From positions 14,743 to 78,742 of the forward strand of contig JAMOBD010000007.1 of assembly GCA_039908345.1 (NCBI GenBank): a stretch of 64,000 nucleotides of DNA, written 5' to 3'. Below, piece after piece: positions 670 through 46,393 of this stretch. The first letter of the stretch is position 1. Every line of letters starts with the position of its first letter. This DNA is from Magnetospirillum sp. WYHS-4. GTDB lineage: Bacteria; Pseudomonadota; Alphaproteobacteria; Rhodospirillales; GLO-3. The notes beneath the pieces were generated by a model that worked only from the letters and a program-made list of their open reading frames with translations, did not search any database and had not been told where the DNA came from. The position numbers were made by a program, and so were the translations under genes.

Positions 670-3411
670 ATGACCCGAATCCGCAATCCGCGCGCCCTCA
701 TCGACCGCAAGGCCCTGGTCGCCAGACTCGAAGAGCTGGCGGGCTGGTCCGGCTGGTCGGCCAAGACCCGGCCACAGGTGCTGGACATCTTCAAGGAGGT
801 GCTGGCGTCGGGCCGCGCCGAGGTCCGCCGCCGCTTCGAGGAAGACAAGGTCACCGGCCCCGAGGCCACCCGCGCCCAGGCCTACCTGATGGACCAGCTG
901 ATCCGCACCGTCTTGGATTTTTCCGTCCAACACGTCTATCCGGTGGCCAATCCCACCAAGGGCGAACAGTTGTCGGCCGCCGCCATCGGCGGCTACGGGC
1001 GGGGCGAGTTGGCCCCCTTTTCCGACATCGATCTGATGTTCATCCTGCCCTACAAGTCGACGCCCCATACCGAGCAGGTGGTGGAGTTCATTCTCTACAT
1101 GCTCTGGGACCTTGGGCTGAAGGTGGGGCATTCGACGCGGTCGGTGGACGACGTCTTGCGCCTGGCCCGATCCGACCAGACGATCCGCACCAGTGTGCTG
1201 GAGGCCCGCTGGCTGTGGGGAGACGACGCCCTGTTCAAGGACTTCAAGAAGCGCTTCCAGGCGGAAATCGTCGCCACCACCGGCCGCGAGTTCGTGGAAA
1301 GCAAGCTGGGCGAGCGCGATTCGCGCCATTCCCGCATGGGCGACACCCGCTACGTCCTGGAACCCAACATCAAGGAAGGCAAGGGTGGCCTGCGCGATCT
1401 GCAGACCCTGTTCTGGATCGCCAAGTACCTCTACCAGGTGGAGGAAGTGGACCAGTTGGTCGCCAAGGGCGTGCTGACGCCGGAGGACGCCCGGCGCTTC
1501 GCCAAGGCGGAGACCTTCCTCTGGACCGTGCGCTGCCACCTGCATTACGTGGCCGGTCGGCCTGAGGAACGGCTCACCTTCAACGTCCAGGAGGAAATCG
1601 GCAGGCGCATGGGCTATCGCGACCGCGCCGGCTCGCGGGGCGTCGAACGCTTCATGAAGCACTACTTCCTGGTCGCCAAGGACGTGGGCGACTTGACCCG
1701 CATCCTCTGCGCCGTCCTGGAGGAGGACAACAAGAAGCGCCGCTTCAAGCTGCCGGGCCTGTCCTTTCTCAAGCGCAACCTGCCGGGGCTAAGGGTGGCC
1801 GGTGGACGGGTGTCCATCGACGACGAGGCGGCCCTGAAGAAGGACCCGCTGCTCATCCTGCGTCTGTTCCACGAAGCCCAGCGCCTGCAGATCGATATCC
1901 ATCCCCACGCGCTGCGCATGGTGACCCAGAACCTCGGCTTGGTGGACGCCCGCCTGCGCGACGACGGGGAAGCCAACCGGCTGTTCCTGGAAATGCTCTG
2001 TGACCTGCCCGAGCCCGAGGAAGCCCTGAAGCGGCTGAACGAGGCCGACGTCTTCGGCCGCTTCATCCCCGACTTCGGCCGGGTCGTGGCCCAGATGCAG
2101 TACGACATGTACCACGTCTACACGGTGGACGAGCACACCATCCGCGCCATCGGGGTCCTGAGCCGTATCGCCTCGGGGGCCATGGAAGGCGATTGCGCCG
2201 TGGCCTGCGAAGCCATCAAGGAAATCGAATCCCTGCGCGCCCTTTCGGTCGCCGTTCTGCTGCACGACATCGCCAAGGGCCGGGGCGGCGACCATTCGGA
2301 ACTGGGCGCCCAGGTGGCCCGCAAGCTGGGGCCCCGCCTGGGGTTGACCGACTGGGAGATCGAGACGGTGTCCTGGCTGGTGCTGCACCACCTGGTCATG
2401 AGCGCCACGGCCTTCAAGCGCGACATCAGCGACGCCAAGACCATCGCCGACTTCGTGGAGCGGGTGCAATCGCCGGAACGGCTGCGCATGCTGTTGGTCC
2501 TGACGGTCGCCGACATCATGGCGGTGGGGCCCAACGTCTGGAATTCCTGGAAGGGCAACCTGCTGAAGGACCTTTATTACGAATCCCTGGCGGCGATGAC
2601 CGGCGGCCTGCCCACCGCCCACCGTTCGGCCCGGGTCGAACAGGCCAAGCTGGCGCTCAGGGCCCGATTGGAAAGCTGGGCCGAGGCCGACGTGGAGCGC
2701 CACCTGGCGCTCGGCAACCTGAACTACTGGCTGAGCTTCGACACCGCCACCCACGTCCAGCATGCCGGCCTGGTGCGCCGCGCCGCCGAGGAAGGCCGGG
2801 AACTGCTGATCGAAAGCCGCGCCGACGTGGCCCGCGACGCCACCGAGGTCATCATCTACGCCCCCGACCATCCGGGCCTTTTCGCCCAGATCGCCGGCGC
2901 CATGGCCCTGGGCGGCGCCAACATCGTCGAAGCGCGCATCACCACGCTCAACAACGGCATGGCCCTGGACACCTTCCTGGTCCAGGACGCCGGCGCCCAC
3001 GCGGCCATCGACGACGAACCCCGGATGAAGCGCCTCTGCGCCTCCATCGAAAGCGCGCTCAGCGGCACCCGGCACCTGAGGAAGGAACTGGCCGAAGCCA
3101 TCCACAAGATGCTGCCCAGCCGCACCCAGGTCTTCACCGTGCCGCCCCGGGTGCTGGTCGACAACGAGGCCAGCCGCCAGTTCACCGTCATCGAGGTCAA
3201 CGGCCGCGACCGGCCGGGATTCCTCTACGACGTGACGCGGGCCTGCACCGACCTGGGCCTGCAGATCGCCTCGGCGCGGATTTCCACCTACGGCGAACGG
3301 GCGGTGGACGTCTTCTACGTCAAGGACGTCTACGGCCTGAAAGTGGACGGCGAGGAAAAGCTGGAACGCATACGCAAGCGTCTACTCCTGGCCGTCGCGC
3401 CGGAGGCGTGA
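670..3411 (+). CDS. glnD: bifunctional [protein-PII] uridylyltransferase / uridylyl-removing enzyme
   Basis: Track ORF 262..3411; the first plausible Met is at 670 (MTRIRNPRALIDRKALV). It has an N-terminal nucleotidyltransferase (GGYGRGELAPFSDIDLMF), an HD domain (LLHDIAKGRGGDHSELG) and two C-terminal ACT-like repeats. Confidence 0.95.
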   Translation: MTRIRNPRALIDRKALVARLEELAGWSGWSAKTRPQVLDIFKEVLASGRAEVRRRFEEDKVTGPEATRAQAYLMDQLIRTVLDFSVQHVYPVANPTKGEQLSAAAIGGYGRGELAPFSDIDLMFILPYKSTPHTEQVVEFILYMLWDLGLKVGHSTRSVDDVLRLARSDQTIRTSVLEARWLWGDDALFKDFKKRFQAEIVATTGREFVESKLGERDSRHSRMGDTRYVLEPNIKEGKGGLRDLQTLFWIAKYLYQVEEVDQLVAKGVLTPEDARRFAKAETFLWTVRCHLHYVAGRPEERLTFNVQEEIGRRMGYRDRAGSRGVERFMKHYFLVAKDVGDLTRILCAVLEEDNKKRRFKLPGLSFLKRNLPGLRVAGGRVSIDDEAALKKDPLLILRLFHEAQRLQIDIHPHALRMVTQNLGLVDARLRDDGEANRLFLEMLCDLPEPEEALKRLNEADVFGRFIPDFGRVVAQMQYDMYHVYTVDEHTIRAIGVLSRIASGAMEGDCAVACEAIKEIESLRALSVAVLLHDIAKGRGGDHSELGAQVARKLGPRLGLTDWEIETVSWLVLHHLVMSATAFKRDISDAKTIADFVERVQSPERLRMLLVLTVADIMAVGPNVWNSWKGNLLKDLYYESLAAMTGGLPTAHRSARVEQAKLALRARLESWAEADVERHLALGNLNYWLSFDTATHVQHAGLVRRAAEEGRELLIESRADVARDATEVIIYAPDHPGLFAQIAGAMALGGANIVEARITTLNNGMALDTFLVQDAGAHAAIDDEPRMKRLCASIESALSGTRHLRKELAEAIHKMLPSRTQVFTVPPRVLVDNEASRQFTVIEVNGRDRPGFLYDVTRACTDLGLQIASARISTYGERAVDVFYVKDVYGLKVDGEEKLERIRKRLLLAVAPEA

Positions 3412-3501
3412 GGAATCGGGCACCGTCTTCGCCGCCGGGTGACTTGAACTCCCCCGCCTGCCGGCCTTATAGTGCGCCCCATGACCGGGGGCGCGCACCA
3501 G

Positions 3502-4443
3502 ATGAATCCCTTTCTGCATCGGCACCTGCTCGGCATCGAGGGGCTGACGCGGCCGGAAATCTCGTTCCTGCTGGACCGTTCGGAAGCCTACGTAGAGCAG
3601 AACCGCGGGGTCGACAAGAAGAAGGCCCTGCTTACGGGCCGCACGGTCATCAACCTGTTCTTCGAGGCTTCCACCCGGACCCGTACCTCCTTCGAACTGG
3701 CGGCCCAGCGCCTGGGCGCCGACGTCATCAACATGTCGGTGTCTTCCAGTTCGGTGAAGAAGGGCGAGACCCTGATCGACACCGCCATGACCCTGAACGC
3801 CATGCATCCCGACGCCCTGGTGGTGCGCCACGGCGATTCGGGGGCGGTGAAGCTGCTGTCCGAGAAGGTCAACTGCGCGGTCCTGAACGCCGGCGACGGG
3901 GCGCACGAGCATCCCACCCAGGCGTTGCTGGACGCGGTGACCATCCGCCGGCGCAAGGGAGAATTGGAGAATTTGCGGGTCGCCATCTGCGGCGACATCG
4001 CCCATTCGCGGGTGGCGCGCTCCAACATCCACCTGCTCACCACCATGGGCGCGCGGGTGCGCCTGATCGCGCCCAAGACCCTGATCCCTTCCAAGATCGA
4101 GAACCTGGGCGTCGAAGTCTTCCACGACATGCACAAGGGCCTGGCCGGCTGCGACATCGTGATGATGCTGCGCCTGCAGACGGAACGCATGCACAGCAAC
4201 TACTTTCCCTCCATCCGCGAATATTTCCACTTCTTCGGCCTGGATTACGAGAAGCTGGCGGCGGCCAAGCCGGACGCGCTCATCATGCATCCCGGGCCCA
4301 TGAACCGCGGCGTCGAGATCGATTCGGAAGTGGCCGACGACATCGGCCGGTCGGCGATTCGCGAGCAGGTGGAAATCGGCGTCGCGGTGCGCATGGCGGT
4401 GCTGGAAGCCCTGCTGGCGCCGCCAAGGGAGGGGGGCGCCTGA
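3502..4443 (+). CDS. pyrB: aspartate carbamoyltransferase catalytic chain
   Basis: Track ORF 3472..4443. Motifs present: [21 protein letters not shown] and HPGPMNRG. The start at 3502 ([15 protein letters not shown]) is preferred over 3472. Confidence 0.93.
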
Positions 4444-5771
4444 TGGGTCATCGTTCCGACCATTCGCCGGGCCGCATCGCTTTCATCAACGCCCGCCTGC
4501 TCGATCCTGCCTCGGGCCTGGACGCCAAGGGCGCCCTGCTCGTCGAAGGCGAGGCGATCGCCGATTTCGGTCCCGCCCTGTTCAAGAGTGGCGTTCCGTC
4601 CGGGATCGAGACGGTCGATTGCCGGGGCCATTGCCTGGCGCCCGGCCTGGTCGACATGCGGGTGCAACTGCGCGAGCCGGGCGAGGAGCACAAGGGCACG
4701 CTGGCTTCCGCCGGCCAGGCTGCAACGGCGGGCGGCGTCACCACCATGGTCTGCCTGCCCAACACCTCGCCGGTGATCGACGACATGTCGGTGGTCGAGT
4801 TCGTCGCCCGCCGCGCCCGCAAGCTGGGACTCACCAAGGTCTACTGCTACGGCGCGGTGACCAAGGGTCTGGCCGGCCAGGAACTGGCGGAAATGGGCAT
4901 GTTGGCCGAATCGGGTGCCGTGGCCTTCACCGACGGCACCCAGGCGGTGGGCGACGCCCAGGTCATGCGCCGGGCGCTGACCTACGCCGCCACCTTCGGC
5001 CTGCTGATCGTCCAGCATCCGGAAGAACCGAGCCTCGCCCGCGGGGGCGCCATGAACGCGGGCGAGACCGCGACCCGCCTGGGACTGCCCGGCATTCCCC
5101 GCGAAGCCGAAGTCATCATGGTGGAACGGGATATCCGCCTGGTCGAGATGACCGGCGGGCGGCTGCATTTCGCCCACGTCTCGACCGCCGGAGCCGTCGA
5201 GGCGGTGGCCGCCGCCAAGGCCCGCGGGCTCAAGGTCACCTGCGATACCGCGCCGCCCTACTTCGCCCTGAACGAAGGCGCGGTGGGCGATTACCGCACC
5301 TTCGCCAAGCTGTCGCCGCCCCTGCGTTCCGAGGCCGACCGCAAGGCCATCGTCGAGGGACTGAAGGCCGGCATCATCGACGCCATCGCCTCCGACCACG
5401 CGCCCGAGGACGAAGACGCCAAACGCCTGCCGTTCGCCCAGGCCGCTTTCGGCGGCGTCGGGCTGGAAACCCTGCTGGGCGTCTCGCTGGGGCTATATCA
5501 CCACGGCGGAATGACGCTGCTGGACGTGCTGCGGCCACTGACCTGCGCGCCGGCCGACATCCTGGGGCTGCCTGCCGGGCGGCTGACGAAGGGCGCGGCG
5601 GCGGACCTGGTGCTGTTCGATCCGGAGCGGGGCTGGCGAGTGGATTCGGACGACCTGCTCTCCAAATCCAAGAATACGCCCTTCGACGGCTATCTGGTGC
5701 AGGGCCGCGCATTGCGCACCGTTATCGACGGCCGCACCGTGTTCGACGCCGCCCACGGGCCCGAGGACTGA
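4443..5771 (+). CDS. pyrC: dihydroorotase-like amidohydrolase (PyrC / PyrC'-type; canonical HxH metal motif replaced)
   Basis: This is the last 442 aa of the 1192-aa track ORF 2193..5771. The ATG at 4443 overlaps the pyrB stop (TGATG). It shows the class I dihydroorotase layout ([20 protein letters not shown]), but the usual D-x-H-V-H reads D-M-R-V-Q. Confidence 0.85.
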
Positions 5772-37400: not shown

Positions 37401-38981
37401 CTAGAACCGCAGCGCCTTGACCCGTACCACGTGCGGCAGGGAGCGGATCTTTTCCACCACGCCCCCGGTCGGGGCTTGGTCCACGGAGACCAGGGCGATG
37501 GCATTGCCGCCGGCCTGGTTGCGGCCCAGGTGGAAGGTGGCGATGTTGATGCCGGCGTCGCCCAGGATGGTACCCAGGGCCCCGATGAAGCCCGGCTTGT
37601 CCAGGTTGTGGATGAACAGCACGTTGCTGCCCAGTTCGGCGTCCATGGCGATGCCATCCATTTCGACCAGGCGCGGACGCCCGGCCGCCCCGAACAGGGT
37701 CCCGGCGACCGTGGTGGTCCCCTTGGCGGTCTCCACCTTCAAGGTGATGAGCGACTGGTAGGCCTCGCAGCTCTCGCGCTTGGAGGCGGTCACCTTGATG
37801 TTGCGCTCCTTGGCGAAGGCCGGCGCGCTCACCATGTTGACCGATTCGAGCTGCGGCGCCAGCAGGCCGGTCAGCACCAGGGAGGTCAGAGGGTTGGTGT
37901 TCAATTCCGCCACGTGGCCTTCGTATTCGACGGTCAGGCCGGTGATCGGGTCTTCCGCCAATTGGCCGGCAAACGAGCCCATCTGCTCGCAGAGCTTCAT
38001 GTAGGGCTTGAGCAGCGGGGCATCCTTGGCACTGACGGACGGCATGTTGACCGCGTTGGTCACCGCGCCGGTCAGAAGGTAGTCGGCCATCTGCTCGGCG
38101 ACCTGCAAGGCCACCTTTTCCTGCGCTTCCGTGGTGGAGGCGCCCAGGTGCGGGGTGCAGACCACCTTGTCCATGCCGAACAGGTTGTTCTGCTTGGCCG
38201 GCTCGACCTCGAACACGTCCAGCGCCGCGCCCGCCACATGGCCGGACTCGATGGCCGCCTTGAGATCGGCTTCGACCACCAGGCCGCCGCGGGCGCAGTT
38301 GATGATGCGCACGCCCTTCTTCATCTTCGCCATGGATTCGGCGTTGATGATGTTGCGGGTGGAATCGGTCAGCGGCGTGTGCAAGGTGATGAAGTCGGCC
38401 CGCTTGAACAGGTCTTCCAGTTCCACCTTCTCGATGCCCAGCGCCTCGGCCCGCTCCGGCGACAGGAACGGGTCGTAGCCCAGCACGCGCATCTTCAGGC
38501 CCTGGGCCCGCTCGGCCACCGCGGCGCCGATGTTGCCGCAGCCGATGACGCCCAGGGTCTTGTCCATCAGTTCCACGCCCATGAAGCGGGATTTCTCCCA
38601 CTTACCGGCATGAGTCGAGGCGTTGGCCGCGTGGATGTCGCGGGCCGTCGCCATCATCATGGCGATGGTATGTTCGGCGGTGGTGATGGAATTGCCGAAC
38701 GGCGTGTTCATCACCACGATGCCCTTGGCGGTGGCGGCCGGAATATCGACGTTGTCGACACCTATGCCGGCACGGCCGACCACTTTCAAGCGGGGAGCGG
38801 CGGCGATGATGTCCGCTTTCACCTTGGTCTCGGAGCGGATGGCCAGGCCGTCGTATTGGCCGATGCAGGCCTTCAACTCATCCGGGGTCATGCCCGGCTT
38901 CACGTCCACTTCGATGCCGCGCGACCGGAAGATATCGGCGGCCTGGGGGCTCATCTTGTCGGAAATCAGAACCTTCGGCAT
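37401..38981 (-). CDS. serA: D-3-phosphoglycerate dehydrogenase (long form with ASB and ACT domains)
   Basis: 526 aa. NAD motif GVIGCGNIGAAVA, catalytic-region CTPHLGASTTEAQ, and a C-terminal ACT-like domain. Confidence 0.95.
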   Translation of the reverse strand: MPKVLISDKMSPQAADIFRSRGIEVDVKPGMTPDELKACIGQYDGLAIRSETKVKADIIAAAPRLKVVGRAGIGVDNVDIPAATAKGIVVMNTPFGNSITTAEHTIAMMMATARDIHAANASTHAGKWEKSRFMGVELMDKTLGVIGCGNIGAAVAERAQGLKMRVLGYDPFLSPERAEALGIEKVELEDLFKRADFITLHTPLTDSTRNIINAESMAKMKKGVRIINCARGGLVVEADLKAAIESGHVAGAALDVFEVEPAKQNNLFGMDKVVCTPHLGASTTEAQEKVALQVAEQMADYLLTGAVTNAVNMPSVSAKDAPLLKPYMKLCEQMGSFAGQLAEDPITGLTVEYEGHVAELNTNPLTSLVLTGLLAPQLESVNMVSAPAFAKERNIKVTASKRESCEAYQSLITLKVETAKGTTTVAGTLFGAAGRPRLVEMDGIAMDAELGSNVLFIHNLDKPGFIGALGTILGDAGINIATFHLGRNQAGGNAIALVSVDQAPTGGVVEKIRSLPHVVRVKALRF

Positions 38982-38985
38982 GGTG

Positions 38986-40155
<1,170 letters not shown>

Positions 40156-40315
40156 GATGTACTCCCATCCTTACAGATGGGTCGCGGTCCGTTGGGGGAC
40201 CGTGGCCCGCCGACGCTTATAGGGAACCGATTTCACGTCGTCAACGAGGATTTTTTGCGGTGCGAAAAAACGGGAGACTCACGCTTTCCAAGTCTGTATT
40301 CCGCCCCGCATCGGG

Positions 40316-41542
40316 CTACCGCCCCAGCCCCAGAAGCTGGCCGGCCGCCTCGCGGGCGAAGGGCAGGTTATGGGTAAGCAATAGACCAAGCGAAACGAAG
40401 GTCACCGTGGTGGCGACGGACAAGGCCCGGAAGGCGGAACTCGCGGACAGACGGTCGGACAGTTCCGGCGGCACCGCCCGCCGCCCCACCACCAGCGCCG
40501 ACATGCCGGCACCGTGGTAGAGCCCATAGAGCAGCCAGTTGAGCCCGTCGCCGTGCCAAGCCCCCATGAAGAAGAAGGTGACGAAGATGGCCGCCAAGTT
40601 GGCTCCCACGTCCGACAGCCAGCGAGCCTTCAGCCGGAACCAGCGCAGCAGGACGAAGTAGATGTAGTCCCGGCACCATTGGGCGAAGGTGATGTGCCAA
40701 CGGTTCCAGAAGTCCTGCAGATTGCGCGACAGGAAGGGAAAGTTGAAGTTCTCCGGCAGACGAATGCCGAACAGGCGGGCCACGGCGATGGCCACGTCCG
40801 AATAGCCCGAGAAGTCGAAATAGATGTAGGCGAACTGGCAATAGAGCCCGGCCAGGATCGCCGCCGGTCCCATGCCCTCGGTCGATCCCACCCCGATCAG
40901 GGAATTGGCGCGGAAGACCTCGGCCAGCAGCAGCACCTTGACGACGCCCCCGGCCAGGCGCAACGCGATGTCCCGGTAATCGTCGGCTCCGAGGACGGGA
41001 AGCGGGCCGCCCAAGTCGCGGACGAAGTCCTGGAACCGGTTGATCGGCCCCGCCAGGTAGGCGGGGAAGAACAGCAGGAAGGCGGCCGCCGCGAGCGGGC
41101 TCGGCGCCTCCCGTCCTCGTTTAGCCTGCACCGTCAGGTCGATGGCGCGAAAGGTCATGTAAGACAGGCCCAGCCATTCGAAGCCCGATAGGCCCGGCAG
41201 GGCAGCCATCCCGCCCAGCAGCAGCGAGGAATAATAGCGGTACTTGACCAGCAGGAGCACGAACACCGCCAACAGGATCGCACCGGAGACGGCGAGGGCG
41301 TCCGCCTTGAGACGGGGAACGCGCCCGATGGCCGCGGCGGCCCCGGCGGCCACGGCCGCATAGGCGGCGGTGGCCAGCAGGAAGGCCGGGTGGGCCTCCA
41401 ACTGGCCGAGGAACAGAAGGCTCGAACCGATCAGCAACGCGGGCCGGACGGCCGCCGGCAGGCGTGGCACGGCGAGGCGGAAGAGTGTCGCCGCCGCCAG
41501 AACCTCGGCGAAGAAGACCAGGCTGGTGGCGAAGTTGGTCAT
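40316..41542 (-). CDS. MBOAT-family membrane O-acyltransferase (DltB/AlgI-like)
   Basis: This is the C-terminal 408 aa of the 734-aa track ORF. The ATG at 41542 overlaps the upstream stop (ATGA). Conserved His blocks are FWNRWHITFAQWCRDYIY and FFMGAWHG. Confidence 0.88.
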   Translation of the reverse strand: MTNFATSLVFFAEVLAAATLFRLAVPRLPAAVRPALLIGSSLLFLGQLEAHPAFLLATAAYAAVAAGAAAAIGRVPRLKADALAVSGAILLAVFVLLLVKYRYYSSLLLGGMAALPGLSGFEWLGLSYMTFRAIDLTVQAKRGREAPSPLAAAAFLLFFPAYLAGPINRFQDFVRDLGGPLPVLGADDYRDIALRLAGGVVKVLLLAEVFRANSLIGVGSTEGMGPAAILAGLYCQFAYIYFDFSGYSDVAIAVARLFGIRLPENFNFPFLSRNLQDFWNRWHITFAQWCRDYIYFVLLRWFRLKARWLSDVGANLAAIFVTFFFMGAWHGDGLNWLLYGLYHGAGMSALVVGRRAVPPELSDRLSASSAFRALSVATTVTFVSLGLLLTHNLPFAREAAGQLLGLGR

Positions 41543-43143
41543 TCCTGCTCGATCCGGTCGCGCAGTTTGCGGCGGTCCACCTTGCCGTTGTCGTTGCGCG
41601 GGAAGTCGGCCAGGAAGCCGAAGCGGGCCGGAATCATGTAGGCCGGCAGCTGGTGGCCCAGAAAGGCCTGCAACGCCTCGGCCGCCACGCCCTCGTGACC
41701 ATGTTCGGGCACCACGCCGGCCAGCAGTTCCGTGCCCGACGACCCCAGGACCACGACGGCGTCGTGGACCTCGGGGGCGGAACGCAGCACCGCCTCGATC
41801 TCGCCCAGTTCCACCCGGTAGCCACGCACCTTCACCTGGCTGTCGCCACGCCCGACCCAGGTCAGGATGCCCGCCGCATCGACCGTCGCCAAGTCGCCGG
41901 TGTCGTACATCACGGTCCCCAGATCGCGCTTGAAGGGATTGGGCCGGAAGGCCCGCGCCGTGATATCCGGAGCCCGCCAATAGCCGTGAGCGAGTTGGCT
42001 GCCGGCGATCATCAACCGGCCCACCTCGCCGGGGGCCGCCAATTCGTCGGTATCGGCCCGCAGGACGAACAGTTCGCAATCGGTACTCGCCCGGCCGATG
42101 GGAACGGGCCGGCCGGCCTCGACCGGACCGTCGGCGTCGACCAGGAAGGCGGTGCAGAAGATCGCAGCCTCGGTAGGCCCATAGGTGTTCCAGATGGGCA
42201 CGCCGGGTTGCAGGCGCCGCCATTCCAACGCCCATTCGGCGGGCAGGGCCTCGCCGATGAACAGGGCGACCCGCAGATCGGGAAAGGGGCCGGCGGCCAA
42301 CTGGCGCGACTTTATCATCATGCCGATGGTGCCGGGAACGGAGCACCAGACAGAAATCCTCTGGCTGCGGATGAAGTCGCCCGGGAAGGTCAGATCCTTG
42401 CCCCCCAGGATCGGGCAGACGGTTCCGCCGGCCAGGAAGCCGGCGAAGATGTCGAACATGGCAACGTCGAAGGTCAGGCGCGAATGGTTGGCGAAGCGGT
42501 CGCCGGGCGCCAGCCGCCACAGATCGACGCTCCAGCGCAGCACCGACATTACCGCCCGGTGCGACAGCATGACGCCTTTCGGCCTGCCGGTGGTTCCCGA
42601 GGTGAAGAGGATATAGGCGAGGTCCTCCTCTCGGTTTTGCGGCACCAGGCGGGCGTGGGGGGCGGCTTCCAGGTCGTCGGCCCCGAACAGGTGCGAAGCC
42701 GGGATGGCCGGCCCCGCGTCCGGACGTCCGGCGACATCGAGGACCACCACCATGGGCGAGGCCTCGACCGCCGCATGGCCCAGCACGTCGGCGAGCAGCG
42801 GCAGGTGCTCGCCAAGGGTGACCACCGCCACCGGCCCTGCCTGCCCCACGATATCGGCCAAGCGGAAGGCCGGAAAGGCGGGACTGAGGGGCACGAAGCA
42901 GGCATCCGCCGCCAGGGTTCCCAGCAGCCCGGCATAGGCCTGGGCGCCGTTGTCCATCAGGACGGCGACCCGGTCGTTGCGCCCTACCCCCAGTTCGCGC
43001 AGCAAAGCCCCCAGGCGGCGCATGCGGTCGCGCAGTTCGCGGTAGCTCCAGACGGAACCGTACTCGTCCACCGCCGGGGCGTCCGGCGTCGCAGCCGCCC
43101 AGGCCTCGACCGCCTCGTGCAGGAGAGACGGGCGGACCATCAC
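41539..43143 (-). CDS. stand-alone adenylation enzyme (DltA-like amino acid--carrier protein ligase)
   Basis: 534 aa. LAYILFTSGTTGRPKGV (A3), NTYGPTEA (A5), YDTGDL (A7), GRGDSQVKVRGYRVELGEIE (A8) and NDNGKVDRRKL (A10). There is no condensation or thioesterase domain. Confidence 0.88.
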   Translation of the reverse strand: MMVRPSLLHEAVEAWAAATPDAPAVDEYGSVWSYRELRDRMRRLGALLRELGVGRNDRVAVLMDNGAQAYAGLLGTLAADACFVPLSPAFPAFRLADIVGQAGPVAVVTLGEHLPLLADVLGHAAVEASPMVVVLDVAGRPDAGPAIPASHLFGADDLEAAPHARLVPQNREEDLAYILFTSGTTGRPKGVMLSHRAVMSVLRWSVDLWRLAPGDRFANHSRLTFDVAMFDIFAGFLAGGTVCPILGGKDLTFPGDFIRSQRISVWCSVPGTIGMMIKSRQLAAGPFPDLRVALFIGEALPAEWALEWRRLQPGVPIWNTYGPTEAAIFCTAFLVDADGPVEAGRPVPIGRASTDCELFVLRADTDELAAPGEVGRLMIAGSQLAHGYWRAPDITARAFRPNPFKRDLGTVMYDTGDLATVDAAGILTWVGRGDSQVKVRGYRVELGEIEAVLRSAPEVHDAVVVLGSSGTELLAGVVPEHGHEGVAAEALQAFLGHQLPAYMIPARFGFLADFPRNDNGKVDRRKLRDRIEQE

Positions 43144-43370
43144 GCCACGCCCTCCCGAAGGAAGCCCAGCAAGGCCGGGACGTCGGTCAACTGGCCGAAC
43201 ATGTCGGGCGGCACCTGGACGCCGAAGCGCAGTTCGAGCGCCAGGATCAGATCGACCTGGGCCATGGAATCCCAGCCGGGCGTCTTGCCCATGGCCGCAT
43301 CGACACCGATCTCCTTGCGCCGCAACTGTTGGCCTAGAAAGGCCAGCAGGTCGGATTCGCTGATCGCCAT
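43140..43370 (-). CDS. acyl/peptidyl carrier protein (DltC-like)
   Basis: Track ORF 43140..43421. Met at 43370 (MAISESDLLAFL) is preceded by GGGGAGGG. The phosphopantetheine site is GWDSMAQVDL. The stop overlaps the adenylase start. Confidence 0.85.
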   Translation of the reverse strand: MAISESDLLAFLGQQLRRKEIGVDAAMGKTPGWDSMAQVDLILALELRFGVQVPPDMFGQLTDVPALLGFLREGVA

Positions 43371-43386: not shown

Positions 43387-43533
43387 TTAGAACCGCGAAT
43401 AATAGGATGCCGTGCCACCACCCGCCGTCTTGTCGCGACGGTGCTCGGCCGTCAGCAGGAACAGCGCCACCGCCACCCCGAGACCGGTCAGGAAATGAAG
43501 CAGCCGCGGACGGTGGCCGAGCCAGGCTTTCAT
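43387..43533 (-). CDS. 48-aa single-pass membrane micro-protein, DltX-like candidate acyl shuttle
   Basis: Hidden in the tail of a 525-aa out-of-frame track ORF. MKAWLGHRPRLLHFLTGLGVAVALFLLTAEHRRDKTAGGGTASYYSRF. The ATG overlaps the upstream stop (ATGA), and the TAA lies 16 nt before the carrier protein gene. The C-terminal Tyr-x-x-Phe-COOH resembles my recollection of the DltX motif. Confidence 0.5.
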   Translation of the reverse strand: MKAWLGHRPRLLHFLTGLGVAVALFLLTAEHRRDKTAGGGTASYYSRF

Positions 43534-44816
43534 GGCGTTCTCCCCGTCGCCGGCAGGGATAGCCGCCATTCCGCCTGGCTGATGAGTTGTTCCCGCACCG
43601 CCTCCGATTCCGCCTCGGACAACATCGCCACCGGCATGGGCAGGGAGGGCAGGGCCGCCTCCCAGCGAGCCGGCGGCAGAAAGCGCGATGCAGGCCCCGC
43701 CACAATACGCCGCTCCGCCAAGTCGGCCAGCAGAATCCGGGCTTGCTTCAGCTTGCCGCCGAAGTTGAACAGATAGCCGCTGGCGAAGTGCTTCTCCGCA
43801 TCGTAGACCTGATCGCAGGCCGACAAACCGTGGCCCATCGCATGGTCGACGACAGCCGCGTTGGGGAAGGCGGCCAGCACCGCCTTGATGCGCTCGACGA
43901 ACCGGGGCCGAAACTCGGCCGCGTAGCGCGCCTCGGAGAGGTTGAGGTGAGGCGGCACGTAATAGACGAAGCGTACCCCGTGTTCCGCCGCCAAGCCGGC
44001 CGCGAGGCGCAGCCACGCCTGCCAAGTGGCCTCGCCGCCGGCGCCGATCCAGTACTGCCCGGCGGGCATCGGGGTTCGATTGCGGGCCTGGCAGGCGGCG
44101 GGATTGTCGTAGTTGGCCCGGACCTGTTCGAACAGCGTCCGCGCTTCGTGGTGCGCCCGCTGCATCGGCCAGACGGTGAAGGCGACGCTGTCGCGCAGGC
44201 CCTGCCAACGGCGGGCCACCCCGTCTGCCCAGGCGGACAGGCGGTCCGTGGCCGACGGCACCACCGCCTGGGCATGGCCCTGGGACGCGAGAAGCGCCGC
44301 GCGGAAGGTCTTCGCCTCCTCGGCCAGCCGCGGATATTCGGCCTCGATAGCCGCCAATACCGGCAGGGCCGCCAGGGTATCGGACGGACGGGTGAAGGTT
44401 TGCAGGGAGCCGGGATTGTTGATGTAGATCAGGCTGCGCACGTCGCCCTGGCGGACCGCCTGGTAGACCGAGATCAGATGGCGTTCGAAGTCCACGTCGG
44501 GCCGGCCGAAACCGTAGAAGCGCTCCTCTCCCCCACCCTTCTCGTCCAGGATGGCGTTCAGGGCGGCATGCAGGGTGGCCTTCTGGCTGTTGCGGGTCTC
44601 GTGACGGCCGGAAACCATGTAGGCTTCCGTGGTCCAGGTCCAGCAGCCGGTGCCGACGATCAGGTGCTTGGGCTGGGAACGAAAGTTCCAGGGATAGGTA
44701 TCGAGGTAATAGTTGTCCCAGCCGTCCCGTTCGATACGCCAAGGGGGCGCCCAAGCCAGCAGGACGACCAGAGGCAAGGCCATACCCAGAAGAAAGGAGG
44801 CCCAGCGCGCCCTCAT
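43530..44816 (-). CDS. N-terminally anchored extracytoplasmic protein in the DltD position (possible SGNH/AlgX-like transferase)
   Basis: This is the C-terminal 428 aa of the 809-aa track ORF. The ATG overlaps the upstream stop (ATGA). It has a signal-anchor (ASFLLGMALPLVVLLAWA) and a D-x-x-H-like block (YDAEKHF) near the C-terminus. I could not identify a clear block-I Ser, so the function is inferred mainly from context. Confidence 0.6.
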   Translation of the reverse strand: MRARWASFLLGMALPLVVLLAWAPPWRIERDGWDNYYLDTYPWNFRSQPKHLIVGTGCWTWTTEAYMVSGRHETRNSQKATLHAALNAILDEKGGGEERFYGFGRPDVDFERHLISVYQAVRQGDVRSLIYINNPGSLQTFTRPSDTLAALPVLAAIEAEYPRLAEEAKTFRAALLASQGHAQAVVPSATDRLSAWADGVARRWQGLRDSVAFTVWPMQRAHHEARTLFEQVRANYDNPAACQARNRTPMPAGQYWIGAGGEATWQAWLRLAAGLAAEHGVRFVYYVPPHLNLSEARYAAEFRPRFVERIKAVLAAFPNAAVVDHAMGHGLSACDQVYDAEKHFASGYLFNFGGKLKQARILLADLAERRIVAGPASRFLPPARWEAALPSLPMPVAMLSEAESEAVREQLISQAEWRLSLPATGRTP

Positions 44817-45571
44817 CCGAGGTAGTCGCCGTGCCGGGCCACCAGGGCCCCATGGACATGCCGCAAATGGGCCGCCACCTTGTCTCGGTCGACCAGACGC
44901 CGTCCCAGGTAGGCCAGTTCCCAGGCCTGCCAGAAAGCTTGGCCCGAGAGATTTCCGAAACCATCCCATGCCAGCAGCTTTTCCCGGTAGGAGTCCCAGA
45001 AGGCCTTGATGCCCTGGGTATGGAGGACGATCAACGGATGGCGTAGCGCCTGGGCCAGGGCGTCGTCGCCGGCCAGGGCTTCGCGGATCAGCGTCGGCCC
45101 CGGCGCGTCGTTCAGTGGACAGAGCGACAGGCCCTCCTTCAACTCGAAGGTCGCGTCCAGGATGGCGGCCGGGACGACCTCCTCGATGGCGCCGTCGACG
45201 CCGATCACCGGCACGAACGGATAGGTGCGGCACAACAGGGGCTTGGTGAACAGCTCGTTGCAACGCCCGAGATGGCGGCAGGGAACGTGGCGGAGCATGA
45301 TCGGCCTCGGCCCGCCGAAGTCGAAGATCATGGGCTGGATCTCCTTGCCCTCGTCCTCGCCGCAGATCCTGTGGCCGTTGGCCTTCAGCCAGGCGTATTC
45401 GTCGTCCAGATAAACCACGATGGTCCCCTGCCCGCCGTTGGGCAGCAGGCGGAAGCGGAAATCCGGATGACTGTTGGAACAGCAGAATCCGCCGCAGCCT
45501 TTCCAGCAGTCCGGCACCGAAATGAGTGGGCGGCTGTGGATGGTATGCCAATCCACCGGTTCGAAAGACAT
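44813..45571 (-). CDS. cysteine-cluster protein (YkgJ/CxxCxxCC-like?)
   Basis: 252 aa. CWKGCGGFCC near the N-terminus, plus further conserved-looking Cys (HVPCRHLGRC, LLCRTYPF). First gene of the overlapping gene chain. Confidence 0.6.
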   Translation of the reverse strand: MSFEPVDWHTIHSRPLISVPDCWKGCGGFCCSNSHPDFRFRLLPNGGQGTIVVYLDDEYAWLKANGHRICGEDEGKEIQPMIFDFGGPRPIMLRHVPCRHLGRCNELFTKPLLCRTYPFVPVIGVDGAIEEVVPAAILDATFELKEGLSLCPLNDAPGPTLIREALAGDDALAQALRHPLIVLHTQGIKAFWDSYREKLLAWDGFGNLSGQAFWQAWELAYLGRRLVDRDKVAAHLRHVHGALVARHGDYLG

Positions 45572-45643: not shown

Positions 45644-46393
45644 CTAAAGAAGATGCCAGAACCTTTCCGCGCCTCCGTCCGGCCGCAAGCGGCGGCCGCA
45701 TTTCAGGGTGAGTGCGCTGACGCTCCCGTCGCCGTCCTGGGACCGGTAGCAGTCCATGCCCCTTTGCTTGACGGTCTCCATGTCCGGGTAGGCGACTTCC
45801 ACCGCCTCCGCCCGCAACCGGTAACGCGCGGCCACTTCGGCGACGAAGCGGGGGATATCCTCCGGAGCGTAGTCGATGGCATAGGGAAGGTCCTCCCACA
45901 GGTAGACCGCCTCGGCGATGCCGGGCCCCAGCCCCAGTCCGCCGTCGCGAACCGCCCAATGGTCGGCGTGGCGCCCCAGGCCCACCGGAAGCAGCAGGGC
46001 AGTGCCCGCCTCGCCCGCCAATTCCTTCAGGTGTCCGGCCACCGCTTGTGCCAGGACGGCATCCTCGGGCCCGCCGCGGGCAGGGTCGAAGACCGCTTCC
46101 AGGGTGCCGCGGCGCACGATGGCGTCAAGATAGTCGAAATAGTGCAGCCCACAGGCAGGCCCCAGCAGGGCCGCATAGGACTCCTCCTCCCGCCGCCGCA
46201 GGGCCGTGGGTCCGTCCAGGTCGCCGTTCCGTTGGCCGTCGACGTAGAAGGTGCGGGTGCAGAAGGTGGCGATGGCGATCGCCCGTCCTCGCCGAACGGC
46301 TTCCCCCAGCATCCCGCCGCAAGCGAAGGCCGCGTCGTCGGGATGGGGGGCCGCGACCAGGAAGCGTCGATGCCGGAAGATGCTTTCGTCCAT
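45644..46393 (-). CDS. PIG-L/LmbE-family N-acetylglucosaminyl deacetylase
   Basis: LVAAPHPDDAAFACGG (PHPDD metal motif) and GRHADHWAV (H-x-D-H). It lies 72 nt upstream of the Cys-cluster gene on the same strand. Confidence 0.85.
   Translation of the reverse strand: MDESIFRHRRFLVAAPHPDDAAFACGGMLGEAVRRGRAIAIATFCTRTFYVDGQRNGDLDGPTALRRREEESYAALLGPACGLHYFDYLDAIVRRGTLEAVFDPARGGPEDAVLAQAVAGHLKELAGEAGTALLLPVGLGRHADHWAVRDGGLGLGPGIAEAVYLWEDLPYAIDYAPEDIPRFVAEVAARYRLRAEAVEVAYPDMETVKQRGMDCYRSQDGDGSVSALTLKCGRRLRPDGGAERFWHLL

Follow-up and report, generated by a model that had tools for sequence, protein, structure and literature searches.

The window analyzed here, a 64-kb stretch of a contig from Magnetospirillum sp. 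WYHS-4, contains a reading frame of 48 codons in a cluster that also encodes a small carrier protein, a DltA-like adenylation enzyme, and a DltB-type MBOAT. Is this micro-ORF a gene, and does its product carry an acyl group on a tyrosine near its C-terminus, as DltX does? The acyl-tyrosine shuttle is itself known already, either as a separate protein (DltX) or fused to the MBOAT (PatA-type MBOATs). The work that established it is recent, dating from 2023 in the case of DltX and from 2025 in that of PatA (PMC12148441). The shuttle motif is FXYXXF at the extreme C-terminus, and it is the tyrosine that is acylated (PMC12148441). PatA-type MBOATs have the motif fused at their own C-terminus, where the tyrosine is auto-acylated; in PatA, it is auto-acetylated and then donates to PatB (PMC12148441). 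The DltB-type MBOATs, which have no fused motif, are the ones that were shown to need a separate tyrosine carrier (PMC12148441).

A small gene between p428 and a carrier protein

The micro-ORF runs from 43533 to 43387 on the minus strand and encodes MKAWLGHRPRLLHFLTGLGVAVALFLLTAEHRRDKTAGGGTASYYSRF (48 amino acids, followed by a stop codon). The first-pass annotation of this DNA did not give the strand, and the plus-strand reading of 43387–43533 is nonsense. On the minus strand, the ORF that it described is present, and so is the start-stop overlap: the ATG (43533–43531) overlaps the TGA (43532–43530) of the upstream gene, which encodes a protein of 428 amino acids that we call p428, as ATGA. 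A Shine-Dalgarno sequence (GGGGAG, 43540..43545, minus strand) lies 6 nt 5' of the ATG. The ORF list also confirms that the micro-ORF is the tail of a mechanical, wrong-frame ORF of 525 amino acids (43387..44964, minus strand). At the other end, the TAA stop codon is followed by a 16-nt spacer, AGGGGAGGGAATACCG, which reaches to the ATG of the carrier gene at 43370. The micro-ORF had been said to end 16 nt before the Shine-Dalgarno sequence of the carrier gene, which is wrong: 16 nt is the length of the whole spacer, and the Shine-Dalgarno sequence sits inside it.

The micro-ORF had also been described as unannotated. This holds for the gene track behind that description, but not for GenBank, which lists an identical protein as a hypothetical protein (MAG hypothetical protein H7841_03970, Magnetospirillum sp. 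WYHS-4). Gene callers treat its counterparts inconsistently: they are called in some related loci and contigs, and missed in two contig gene tables (three JGI contigs were covered through their gene tables, without DNA). Where they are called, some pipelines do so independently, as proteins of 37, 46, 48, or 51 amino acids. No Rfam family overlaps the micro-ORF.

Conservation of the micro-ORF

When we searched a word-indexed protein database with the 48-amino-acid protein, the only match was the protein itself. Six more proteins, of 46–51 amino acids and all ending in YY[S/A]QF, came from an exhaustive search with phmmer, which covered 1.84 billion representatives. Because p428 has 27 homologues at 30–66% identity (alignment A1), we chose it as the handle for finding related loci. 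Scanning genomes with the single p428 sequence gave no match; with the alignment as query, the scans yielded 6 loci from genomes and 5 from metagenomes. Altogether, 17 related loci were drawn from genomes, metagenomes, and assemblies by way of p428, and 15 of them span the site of the micro-ORF (L001–L011, L013, and L015–L017). The hosts of these 15 are Rhodomicrobium, Magnetospirillum, Rhodospirillales, unclassified Alphaproteobacteria, and Desulfovibrio-like MAGs. The members of the micro-ORF family all come from metagenome assemblies.

Each of the 15 site-spanning loci contains a micro-ORF that encodes a hydrophobic helix and ends in Y-x-x-F directly before the stop codon, so the check for such micro-ORFs in homologous loci, which the first-pass annotation had suggested, was positive. 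In every one of these loci the counterpart has an ATGA or GTGA start-stop overlap and a Shine-Dalgarno sequence, and GGAG-like sites are found in the same place, 6–12 nt 5' of the start, in 13 loci. The micro-ORF is also kept despite changes in gene order. L008, with a p428 of 35% identity, has it upstream of p428, with the ending TFYGGF; in L009 and L010 (30% identity), it lies between the ligase gene and the gene for another protein, p252, and ends in TVYGKF. In L015 (29% identity), it ends in AFYAQF.

The substitutions are coding-like, as had been anticipated for a genuine gene. In a protein-guided codon alignment, dN/dS was 0.11–0.55 (Nei-Gojobori, ten pairs), gaps span whole codons, and the differences cluster at third positions. 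Of 13 loci, 12 have a GC3 that equals or exceeds GC1, and all 13 have their lowest value at GC2. The frame of the micro-ORF is the sole frame without stop codons in all of the loci.

We also asked how often an ORF ends in Y-x-x-F. Across all six frames of the 64-kb window, the micro-ORF is the only stop-to-stop ORF that does. If the 17 related loci are included, there are 3883 stop-to-stop ORFs of at least 30 codons, and 17 of these end in Y-x-x-F; 16 of the 17 are the micro-ORF and its counterparts. The background of such endings is about 1 in 3900, and chance is excluded as their source. Taken together, the sequence comparisons indicate that the micro-ORF is a real gene under purifying selection.

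Architecture and the C-terminal motif

The product is predicted to be a single-pass membrane protein. Its hydrophobic segment, LLHFLTGLGVAVALFLLTA (approximately residues 12–29; 43447..43500, minus strand), is a predicted transmembrane helix and forms a conserved block in the alignment, within which G17, L26, and L27 are near-invariant (alignment A2). By the positive-inside rule, the N-terminus should be inside and the C-terminus outside. Family members range from 38 to 62 amino acids and share the hydrophobic block and a tail of 12–20 residues. A conserved A-E-[Q/H] closes the helix, a Gly/Ser-rich linker follows, and the proteins end with the consensus x-[Y/F/V]-Y-[S/G/A]-x-F-COOH.

Across 19 aligned family members, some of which are only 26–32% identical to the window protein, just two columns are invariant: Tyr45, at position −4 (codon 43399–43401), and Phe48, at position −1 (codon 43390–43392). 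Both are in the C-terminal hexapeptide S43-Y44-Y45-S46-R47-F48 (43390..43407, minus strand). Position −5 is aromatic or hydrophobic (Y, F, or V), and position −6 is S, G, A, or T, not Phe. The first-pass annotation had given the Dlt motif with its tyrosine at −4 and its phenylalanine at −1, and this register is correct, according both to the published motif (PMC12148441) and to the FIYNEF ending of real DltX proteins. It had also pointed to the last six residues as the place to look for conservation; this stands for the tyrosine and the terminal phenylalanine, but not for the phenylalanine at −6, which is replaced.

Comparison to DltX

DltX from Bacillus, Staphylococcus, Listeria, and Lactobacillus ends in FIYNEF, at residues 43–48 of about 48. 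(The sequences are from B. thuringiensis (PMC5541007) and, for S. aureus, L. monocytogenes, and L. crispatus, from plasmid-borne dlt operons.) The DltX of B. thuringiensis has 48 amino acids, with Tyr45 and Phe48, which are the same numbers as in the window microprotein. The microprotein also shares with the DltX of Bacillota (PF12459; at NCBI, "teichoic acid D-Ala incorporation-associated protein DltX") a length of about 43–50 amino acids, one hydrophobic helix, a short extracytoplasmic tail (predicted here), and the placement of Tyr −4 and Phe −1 at the extreme C-terminus. And in both cases the gene is beside those for a DltA-like ligase, a carrier protein, and a DltB-type MBOAT without a motif of its own.

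No sequence homology to the DltX family was found when we made the alignment that the first-pass annotation had called for. The window protein and eight relatives had no match to Pfam PF12459 at E ≤ 10, while DltX from B. thuringiensis, as a control, matched it at 2e-21. NCBIfam gave no match for the micro-ORF product either. With hhalign, alignment A2 compared to Bacillus DltX gave a probability of 1%, and the microprotein family compared to the four-genus DltX alignment gave 5.5%. A homology search with B. thuringiensis DltX returned sequences from the B. cereus group only. Judged by sequence, then, the microprotein is not a member of the DltX family. By analogy of architecture and context, it can be described as DltX-like: it has the size, the one helix, the short tail, the terminal Tyr and Phe, and a putative aminoacyl-carrier donor.

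There are other differences from DltX. The tail is x-[Y/F/V]-Y-[S/G/A]-x-F in the microprotein family, compared to F-I-Y-N-E-F in DltX, and the A-E-[Q/H] after the helix is conserved in the microprotein family. The gene order is p428, microprotein, carrier, ligase, MBOAT rather than dltXABCD. And unlike in the dlt operons of Bacillota, the hosts are Gram-negative and there is no DltD. Dlt-type pathways in Gram-negative envelopes have been described before. Kamar et al. reported that two residues, one in the helix and the tyrosine, are fully conserved across DltX, and that Gram-negative DltX has the same topology without sequence similarity (PMC5541007). The dlt operons of Dickeya and Pectobacterium likewise point to a Dlt-type pathway in a Gram-negative envelope. 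Those operons, which we compared by description only, are dlt(X)ABCD with DltD, whereas here p428 replaces DltD and p252 is added. In passing, we also met a micro-ORF from Chloroflexi that ends in WIYQGF.

The donor side: carrier, ligase, and MBOAT

The cassette comprises six genes, for p252, p428, the microprotein, the carrier, the adenylating enzyme, and the MBOAT. They are tightly packed on the minus strand, with overlapping stops and starts. The carrier, an amino-acid ligase, and a DltB-type MBOAT without the motif are constant in all of the complete loci.

The carrier protein (43140..43370, minus strand; 76 amino acids) matches PF00550 with 22.7 bits, above the cut-off, and its putative phosphopantetheine site is in GWDSM. 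It also has weak matches to DltC and ACP models in NCBIfam. The next gene encodes a stand-alone, DltA-like adenylation enzyme of 534 amino acids (41539..43143, minus strand), which matches TIGR01733 with 359 bits (the cut-off is 317). It matches DltA models at 2e-77, below their cut-offs, and its PDB matches are NRPS A-domains and DltA, the best being the second A-domain of LgrA. The aspartate of the FD motif, which binds the alpha-amino group, is retained. In DltA, Cys268 is the position for enantioselectivity (PMC8972799). At the equivalent position the core family has Ile and L008 has Cys, and two further pocket positions are Phe. From this pocket, the substrate may be a small amino acid, which we suggest with low confidence.

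L009 and L010 have, in place of the adenylation enzyme, a homologue of amino acid–[acyl-carrier-protein] ligases (PDB 3MEY at 1.3e-31; NF005479 at 1.8e-49). Since this replacement is non-orthologous, the constant need of the cassette is an aminoacyl-carrier donor, whatever its source. The Bll0957-type ligases (3MEY) adjoin the carrier, micro-ORF, p252, MBOAT, and p428 genes in these two loci, and are absent from the window itself. To our knowledge, the downstream use of the aminoacyl-carriers that such ligases make has been unclear, and our literature search found no paper that ties amino acid–[acyl-carrier-protein] ligases to MBOATs.

The MBOAT (40316..41542, minus strand; 408 amino acids) matches PF03062 and also the DltB model TIGR04091 (1.5e-60). 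The TIGR04091 score, 205.5 bits, is below the equivalog cut-off of 375. The MBOAT matches the solved DltB structures 6BUG and 8JEM at 2e-34, and the WNRWH and WHG histidine motifs are conserved, so despite the score, these comparisons identify it as a clear DltB homologue. It ends in ...GQLLGLGR and therefore has no tyrosine motif of its own. Similarly, none of 12 orthologues of the MBOAT has Y-x-x-F at the C-terminus. The orthologues are about 396–415 amino acids long, where the start could be placed.

The fused systems provide another comparison. PatA and the AlgI/WssH-type MBOATs also have a free C-terminus with Tyr −4 and Phe −1, and in them it is exposed to the periplasm (as is predicted in our case). 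In those systems, the motif is carried on two extra helices of an MBOAT of 470–495 amino acids, whereas here it is encoded by a separate gene and the MBOAT has about 408. The donor also differs: it is acyl-CoA for PatA and the AlgI/WssH type, and would be an aminoacyl-carrier protein here. An alphaproteobacterial MBOAT of the fused type, from the megaplasmid of Methylorubrum extorquens AM1, has 494 amino acids and ends in FIYFQF; its Q-F ending is found in the microprotein family as well. MBOAT matches on plasmids of Gram-negative bacteria (Leptospira, Lawsonia, and Methylorubrum) were considered as candidates and rejected, as they were either of the fused type or paired with SGNH proteins.

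The acceptor side: p428 and p252

The gene for p428 (43530..44816, minus strand) is in what could be called the DltD position. The protein has an N-terminal hydrophobic anchor and a predicted alpha/beta domain. A confident AF2 model built from alignment A1 (pLDDT 90.3, pTM 0.90) predicts five beta-alpha units, with a helix at the N-terminus and a helical insert roughly 100 residues long. We found no Pfam or NCBIfam family for p428, no relative by PDB sequence profile, and no relatives in a plasmid collection. A Foldseek search of the PDB with the model found no similar structure (the best E was 0.04, with TM below 0.2), and hhalign against two DltD sequences gave a probability of 0.3%. Nor does any protein of the cassette match DltD in Pfam or NCBIfam. 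Because p428 resembles neither DltD nor a solved structure, what we propose for the downstream half of the mechanism is drawn from the place of its gene and from its conserved residues.

The columns of p428 that are invariant in all 27 homologues, including those at 30–35% identity, include Cys58-Trp59, Pro135-Gly136, His290, and Gly347-Tyr-Leu. In the model, Cys58-Trp59 is just after beta1, Pro135-Gly136 is after beta3, and His290 (in YVPPH) is after beta4. Asn133, also after beta3, is near-invariant (at least 90%). We propose Cys58 and His290 as the catalytic pair because they, like the residues after beta3, are at the C-terminal ends of parallel strands, which is the position of the active site in alpha/beta enzymes. 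From the model, we infer that this pair may take the aminoacyl group from Tyr45. Like the partners DltD, PatB, AlgJ, and AlgX, p428 has an N-terminal membrane anchor, about 400 amino acids, and a gene that adjoins the shuttle gene (here, the proposed shuttle gene). Like SGNH partners, it has a predicted alpha/beta domain with a large helical insert and conserved residues after beta-strands. Unlike DltD and the SGNH proteins, it has an invariant Cys, instead of Ser, at the nucleophile-like position.

The gene for p252 (44813..45571, minus strand) encodes a Cys-rich protein of 252 amino acids with eight invariant cysteines and no signal or membrane segment, which is probably cytoplasmic. It is present in every complete cassette, including the distant ones. 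We found no family or PDB match for p252, and a single-sequence AF2 prediction had a pLDDT of just 32.5. Beyond p252, a PIG-L family deacetylase (45644..46393, minus strand; PF02585) is a variable accessory neighbor: it adjoins the cassette only in the window, L002, L003, and L016, all of them alphaproteobacterial. The flanking genes are otherwise unrelated between loci. L008 lies within a polysaccharide gene cluster, and glycosyltransferases flank the cassette on one JGI contig. From these neighbors, our best guess is that the envelope acceptor is a glycan.

The proposed role of the microprotein

We propose that the microprotein serves this cassette as its acyl shuttle. This is very probably its role, because no residue of the family is invariant except the Tyr and Phe at the C-terminus, the pair by which DltX takes an acyl group over the membrane. 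The motif, the coding evidence, and the MBOAT context agree, and they support the suggestion of the first-pass annotation, which was a shuttle of the DltX type in the form of a single-pass microprotein with Tyr −4 and Phe −1.

In the scheme that we propose, the adenylating enzyme would charge the 76-amino-acid carrier, on its phosphopantetheine arm, with an amino acid. The DltB-type MBOAT would move the aminoacyl group, via its transmembrane funnel, to the hydroxyl of Tyr45. The microprotein would be a single-pass protein of the inner membrane, with its N-terminus in the cytoplasm; its tail, some 15 residues long, flexible, and rich in Gly, would extend into the periplasm. Its C-terminal hexapeptide would swing the aminoacyl-tyrosine ester to p428, anchored in the membrane on the periplasmic side. 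Then p428 would accept the group, probably on Cys58 with the help of His290, and pass it to an acceptor in the envelope, most likely a glycan.

We also considered that the microprotein might be a scaffold, or an assembly or regulatory subunit, of a complex of the MBOAT with p428. Its Tyr and Phe would then serve for docking, and p428 or a lipid would receive the aminoacyl group straight from the MBOAT. Conservation alone does not separate a catalytic tyrosine from a binding determinant. Indeed, DltX's C-terminal motif binds the catalytic pocket of DltD, and DltX's C-terminal peptide binds both DltD and DltE non-covalently (PMC13653941). Furthermore, p428 is not an SGNH protein, and its chemistry may differ. 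But the two invariant residues are exactly the acylated tyrosine and the terminal phenylalanine of the proven shuttles (PMC12148441), and a scaffold role is less economical because the invariant pair is their catalytic pair. Also, the MBOAT of the window is one of the motif-free, DltB-type MBOATs, which need a separate tyrosine carrier (PMC12148441). We consider the scaffold role to be unlikely.

Alternatively, the micro-ORF might encode a RiPP-type precursor or substrate, whose C-terminal YYSQF core would be the end product, modified by the cassette (including p252). It would fit this that the ORF is small, that its C-terminal core is strongly conserved, and that it lies next to genes for a carrier, an adenylating enzyme, and the Cys-rich p252. 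What makes a RiPP-like precursor very improbable is that the membrane helix is conserved and that protease and export genes are absent. Besides, a DltB-type MBOAT and a membrane-anchored p428 suit the modification of the envelope, and the flanking genes differ from locus to locus.

Finally, that the micro-ORF has no function as a protein, and is either a chance frame (high-GC genomes carry long spurious ORFs, and it is the tail of one of 525 amino acids) or serves only to couple the translation of p428 and the carrier (for which a start that overlaps the upstream stop is typical), is hardly credible and is refuted computationally by the conservation of the peptide across Alphaproteobacteria and Desulfovibrio-like MAGs and by its substitution pattern (dN/dS below 1), besides which this frame alone is open in all loci, it persists when relocated within the cassette, and Y-x-x-F endings are rare in the background.

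Returning to the shuttle, a wider reading is that the cassette as a whole is an undescribed machine for aminoacylation of the Gram-negative envelope, present in Desulfovibrio-like organisms and in Alphaproteobacteria, magnetotactic ones among them. A tyrosine shuttle analogous to DltX would deliver the aminoacyl group to p428, which would be a new Cys-His fold of periplasmic transferase (not SGNH/DltD); p252 would be obligatory; and an amino acid–[carrier protein] ligase would be a variant donor. We hold this wider reading tentatively, and rate its chances as somewhat short of even.

Implications

As far as the sequences indicate, what is new is a family of stand-alone, proposed shuttles that is unrelated in sequence to DltX, occurs in Gram-negative bacteria, and is missed by both Pfam and NCBIfam. 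Also new is the cassette, in which p428, an orphan protein with conserved Cys and His, appears in place of DltD, along with the Cys-rich p252. Since MBOAT pathways other than Dlt were described as having no separate DltX-like microprotein (PMC12148441), the microprotein family would extend this picture. We predict a second, sequence-unrelated lineage of stand-alone shuttle microproteins, which would work with a DltB-type MBOAT and with a different enzyme on the acceptor side.

A free C-terminus with Tyr −4 and Phe −1 could serve as a search signature for missed micro-ORFs beside short MBOATs, of which the one from Chloroflexi that ends in WIYQGF is an example. Our proposal also offers a testable role for the orphan families p428 and p252, and possibly for amino acid–carrier protein ligases: if it is correct, then the variant of the cassette gives this class of ligases a physiological role. 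For the bacteria that carry it, the cassette points to a cationic or zwitterionic modification of the Gram-negative envelope, which may affect surface charge and resistance to antimicrobial peptides.

p428 and p252

The membrane-anchored protein p428 (43530-44816, minus strand), which is encoded at the position of DltD, belongs to a family of some 30 orphan proteins. We found no relatives of p428 in Pfam, in NCBIfam, among PDB sequences, or with Foldseek against the PDB. Its AlphaFold2 (AF2) model is confident (pLDDT 90), and its invariant residues are Cys58-Trp59, His290 (in YVPPH), and Gly347-Tyr-Leu. p428 may have a new periplasmic acyltransferase fold, or else it may be a very diverged analogue of DltD.

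The Cys-rich protein p252 (44813-45571, minus strand) is cytoplasmic and has eight invariant cysteines, in the pattern C-x3-C-x3-CC ... KPLLCRxYP. It is found in all of the cassettes, including the most distant ones. Family and structure searches with p252 gave no match, and a single-sequence AF2 prediction reached a pLDDT of only 32. We take the motif to be similar to the CxxCxxCC of YkgJ-type zinc- or iron-chelating domains; Pfam does not confirm this.

In an uncultured alphaproteobacterial MAG (L006, 6100-9200), frameshifts break up the cassette; they affect p252, p428, the micro-ORF, and the genes for the carrier and the ligase. These frameshifts could reflect decay of the cassette or errors of long-read assembly.

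Surroundings of the cassette

Downstream, the boundary of the cassette is marked by an ordinary serC leader (Rfam RF00517, 55 bits; 40160-40212, minus strand), which lies between the stop codon of the MBOAT gene and serC (38986-40155), with serA (37401-38981) next. On the other side, a PIG-L family deacetylase (45644-46393, minus strand) adjoins the cassette. This deacetylase is beside the cassette only in the window and in three related loci (L002, L003, and L016), with varying position and orientation, and is missing from the other loci. It may be an accessory step that is specific to a clade. In L008 (330-5492 and 10985-11959), the cassette sits amid genes for sugar modification and glycosyltransferases (a GFO_IDH_MocA oxidoreductase, a hexapeptide acetyltransferase, a DegT aminotransferase, and two GT2 enzymes), a possible sign that a surface polysaccharide serves as the acceptor.

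Candidate acyl-shuttle motifs on plasmids

A 47-amino-acid "hypothetical protein" from a plasmid of Leptolinea sp. HRD-7 (Chloroflexota; AP024711.1, L024 4277-4420) is a candidate for a further unrecognised stand-alone shuttle. It ends in ...TAESTPLWIYQGF, shares T-A-E after the helix with the 48-amino-acid window protein, and is directly upstream of a 483-amino-acid DltB-like MBOAT that lacks a fused motif. On the megaplasmid of Methylorubrum extorquens AM1 (NC_012811.1, L018 5581-7065), a 494-amino-acid MBOAT that is not listed in the plasmid collection's distributed gene table ends in FIYFQF and is of the fused acyl-shuttle type.

Aminoacyl donor enzymes

The adenylation enzyme (41539-43143, minus strand) has a substrate pocket unlike that of DltA. 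Cys268, the enantioselectivity residue of DltA, is replaced by Ile in the window but is Cys in L008, and two more pocket positions have Phe. Furthermore, the closest solved structure is the second A-domain of LgrA. Because of these differences, the amino acid is probably not handled as in DltA.

In a distant version of the cassette (L009 and L010), an enzyme homologous to amino acid--[acyl-carrier-protein] ligase (4319-5497 and 3319-4497, respectively; PDB 3MEY at 1.3e-31) takes the place of the adenylation enzyme. It adjoins the micro-ORF, p252, the carrier, the MBOAT, and p428, and a PBP4-type D-Ala-D-Ala carboxypeptidase comes next. This arrangement may indicate a physiological use for the amino acid--[acyl-carrier-protein] ligase class.
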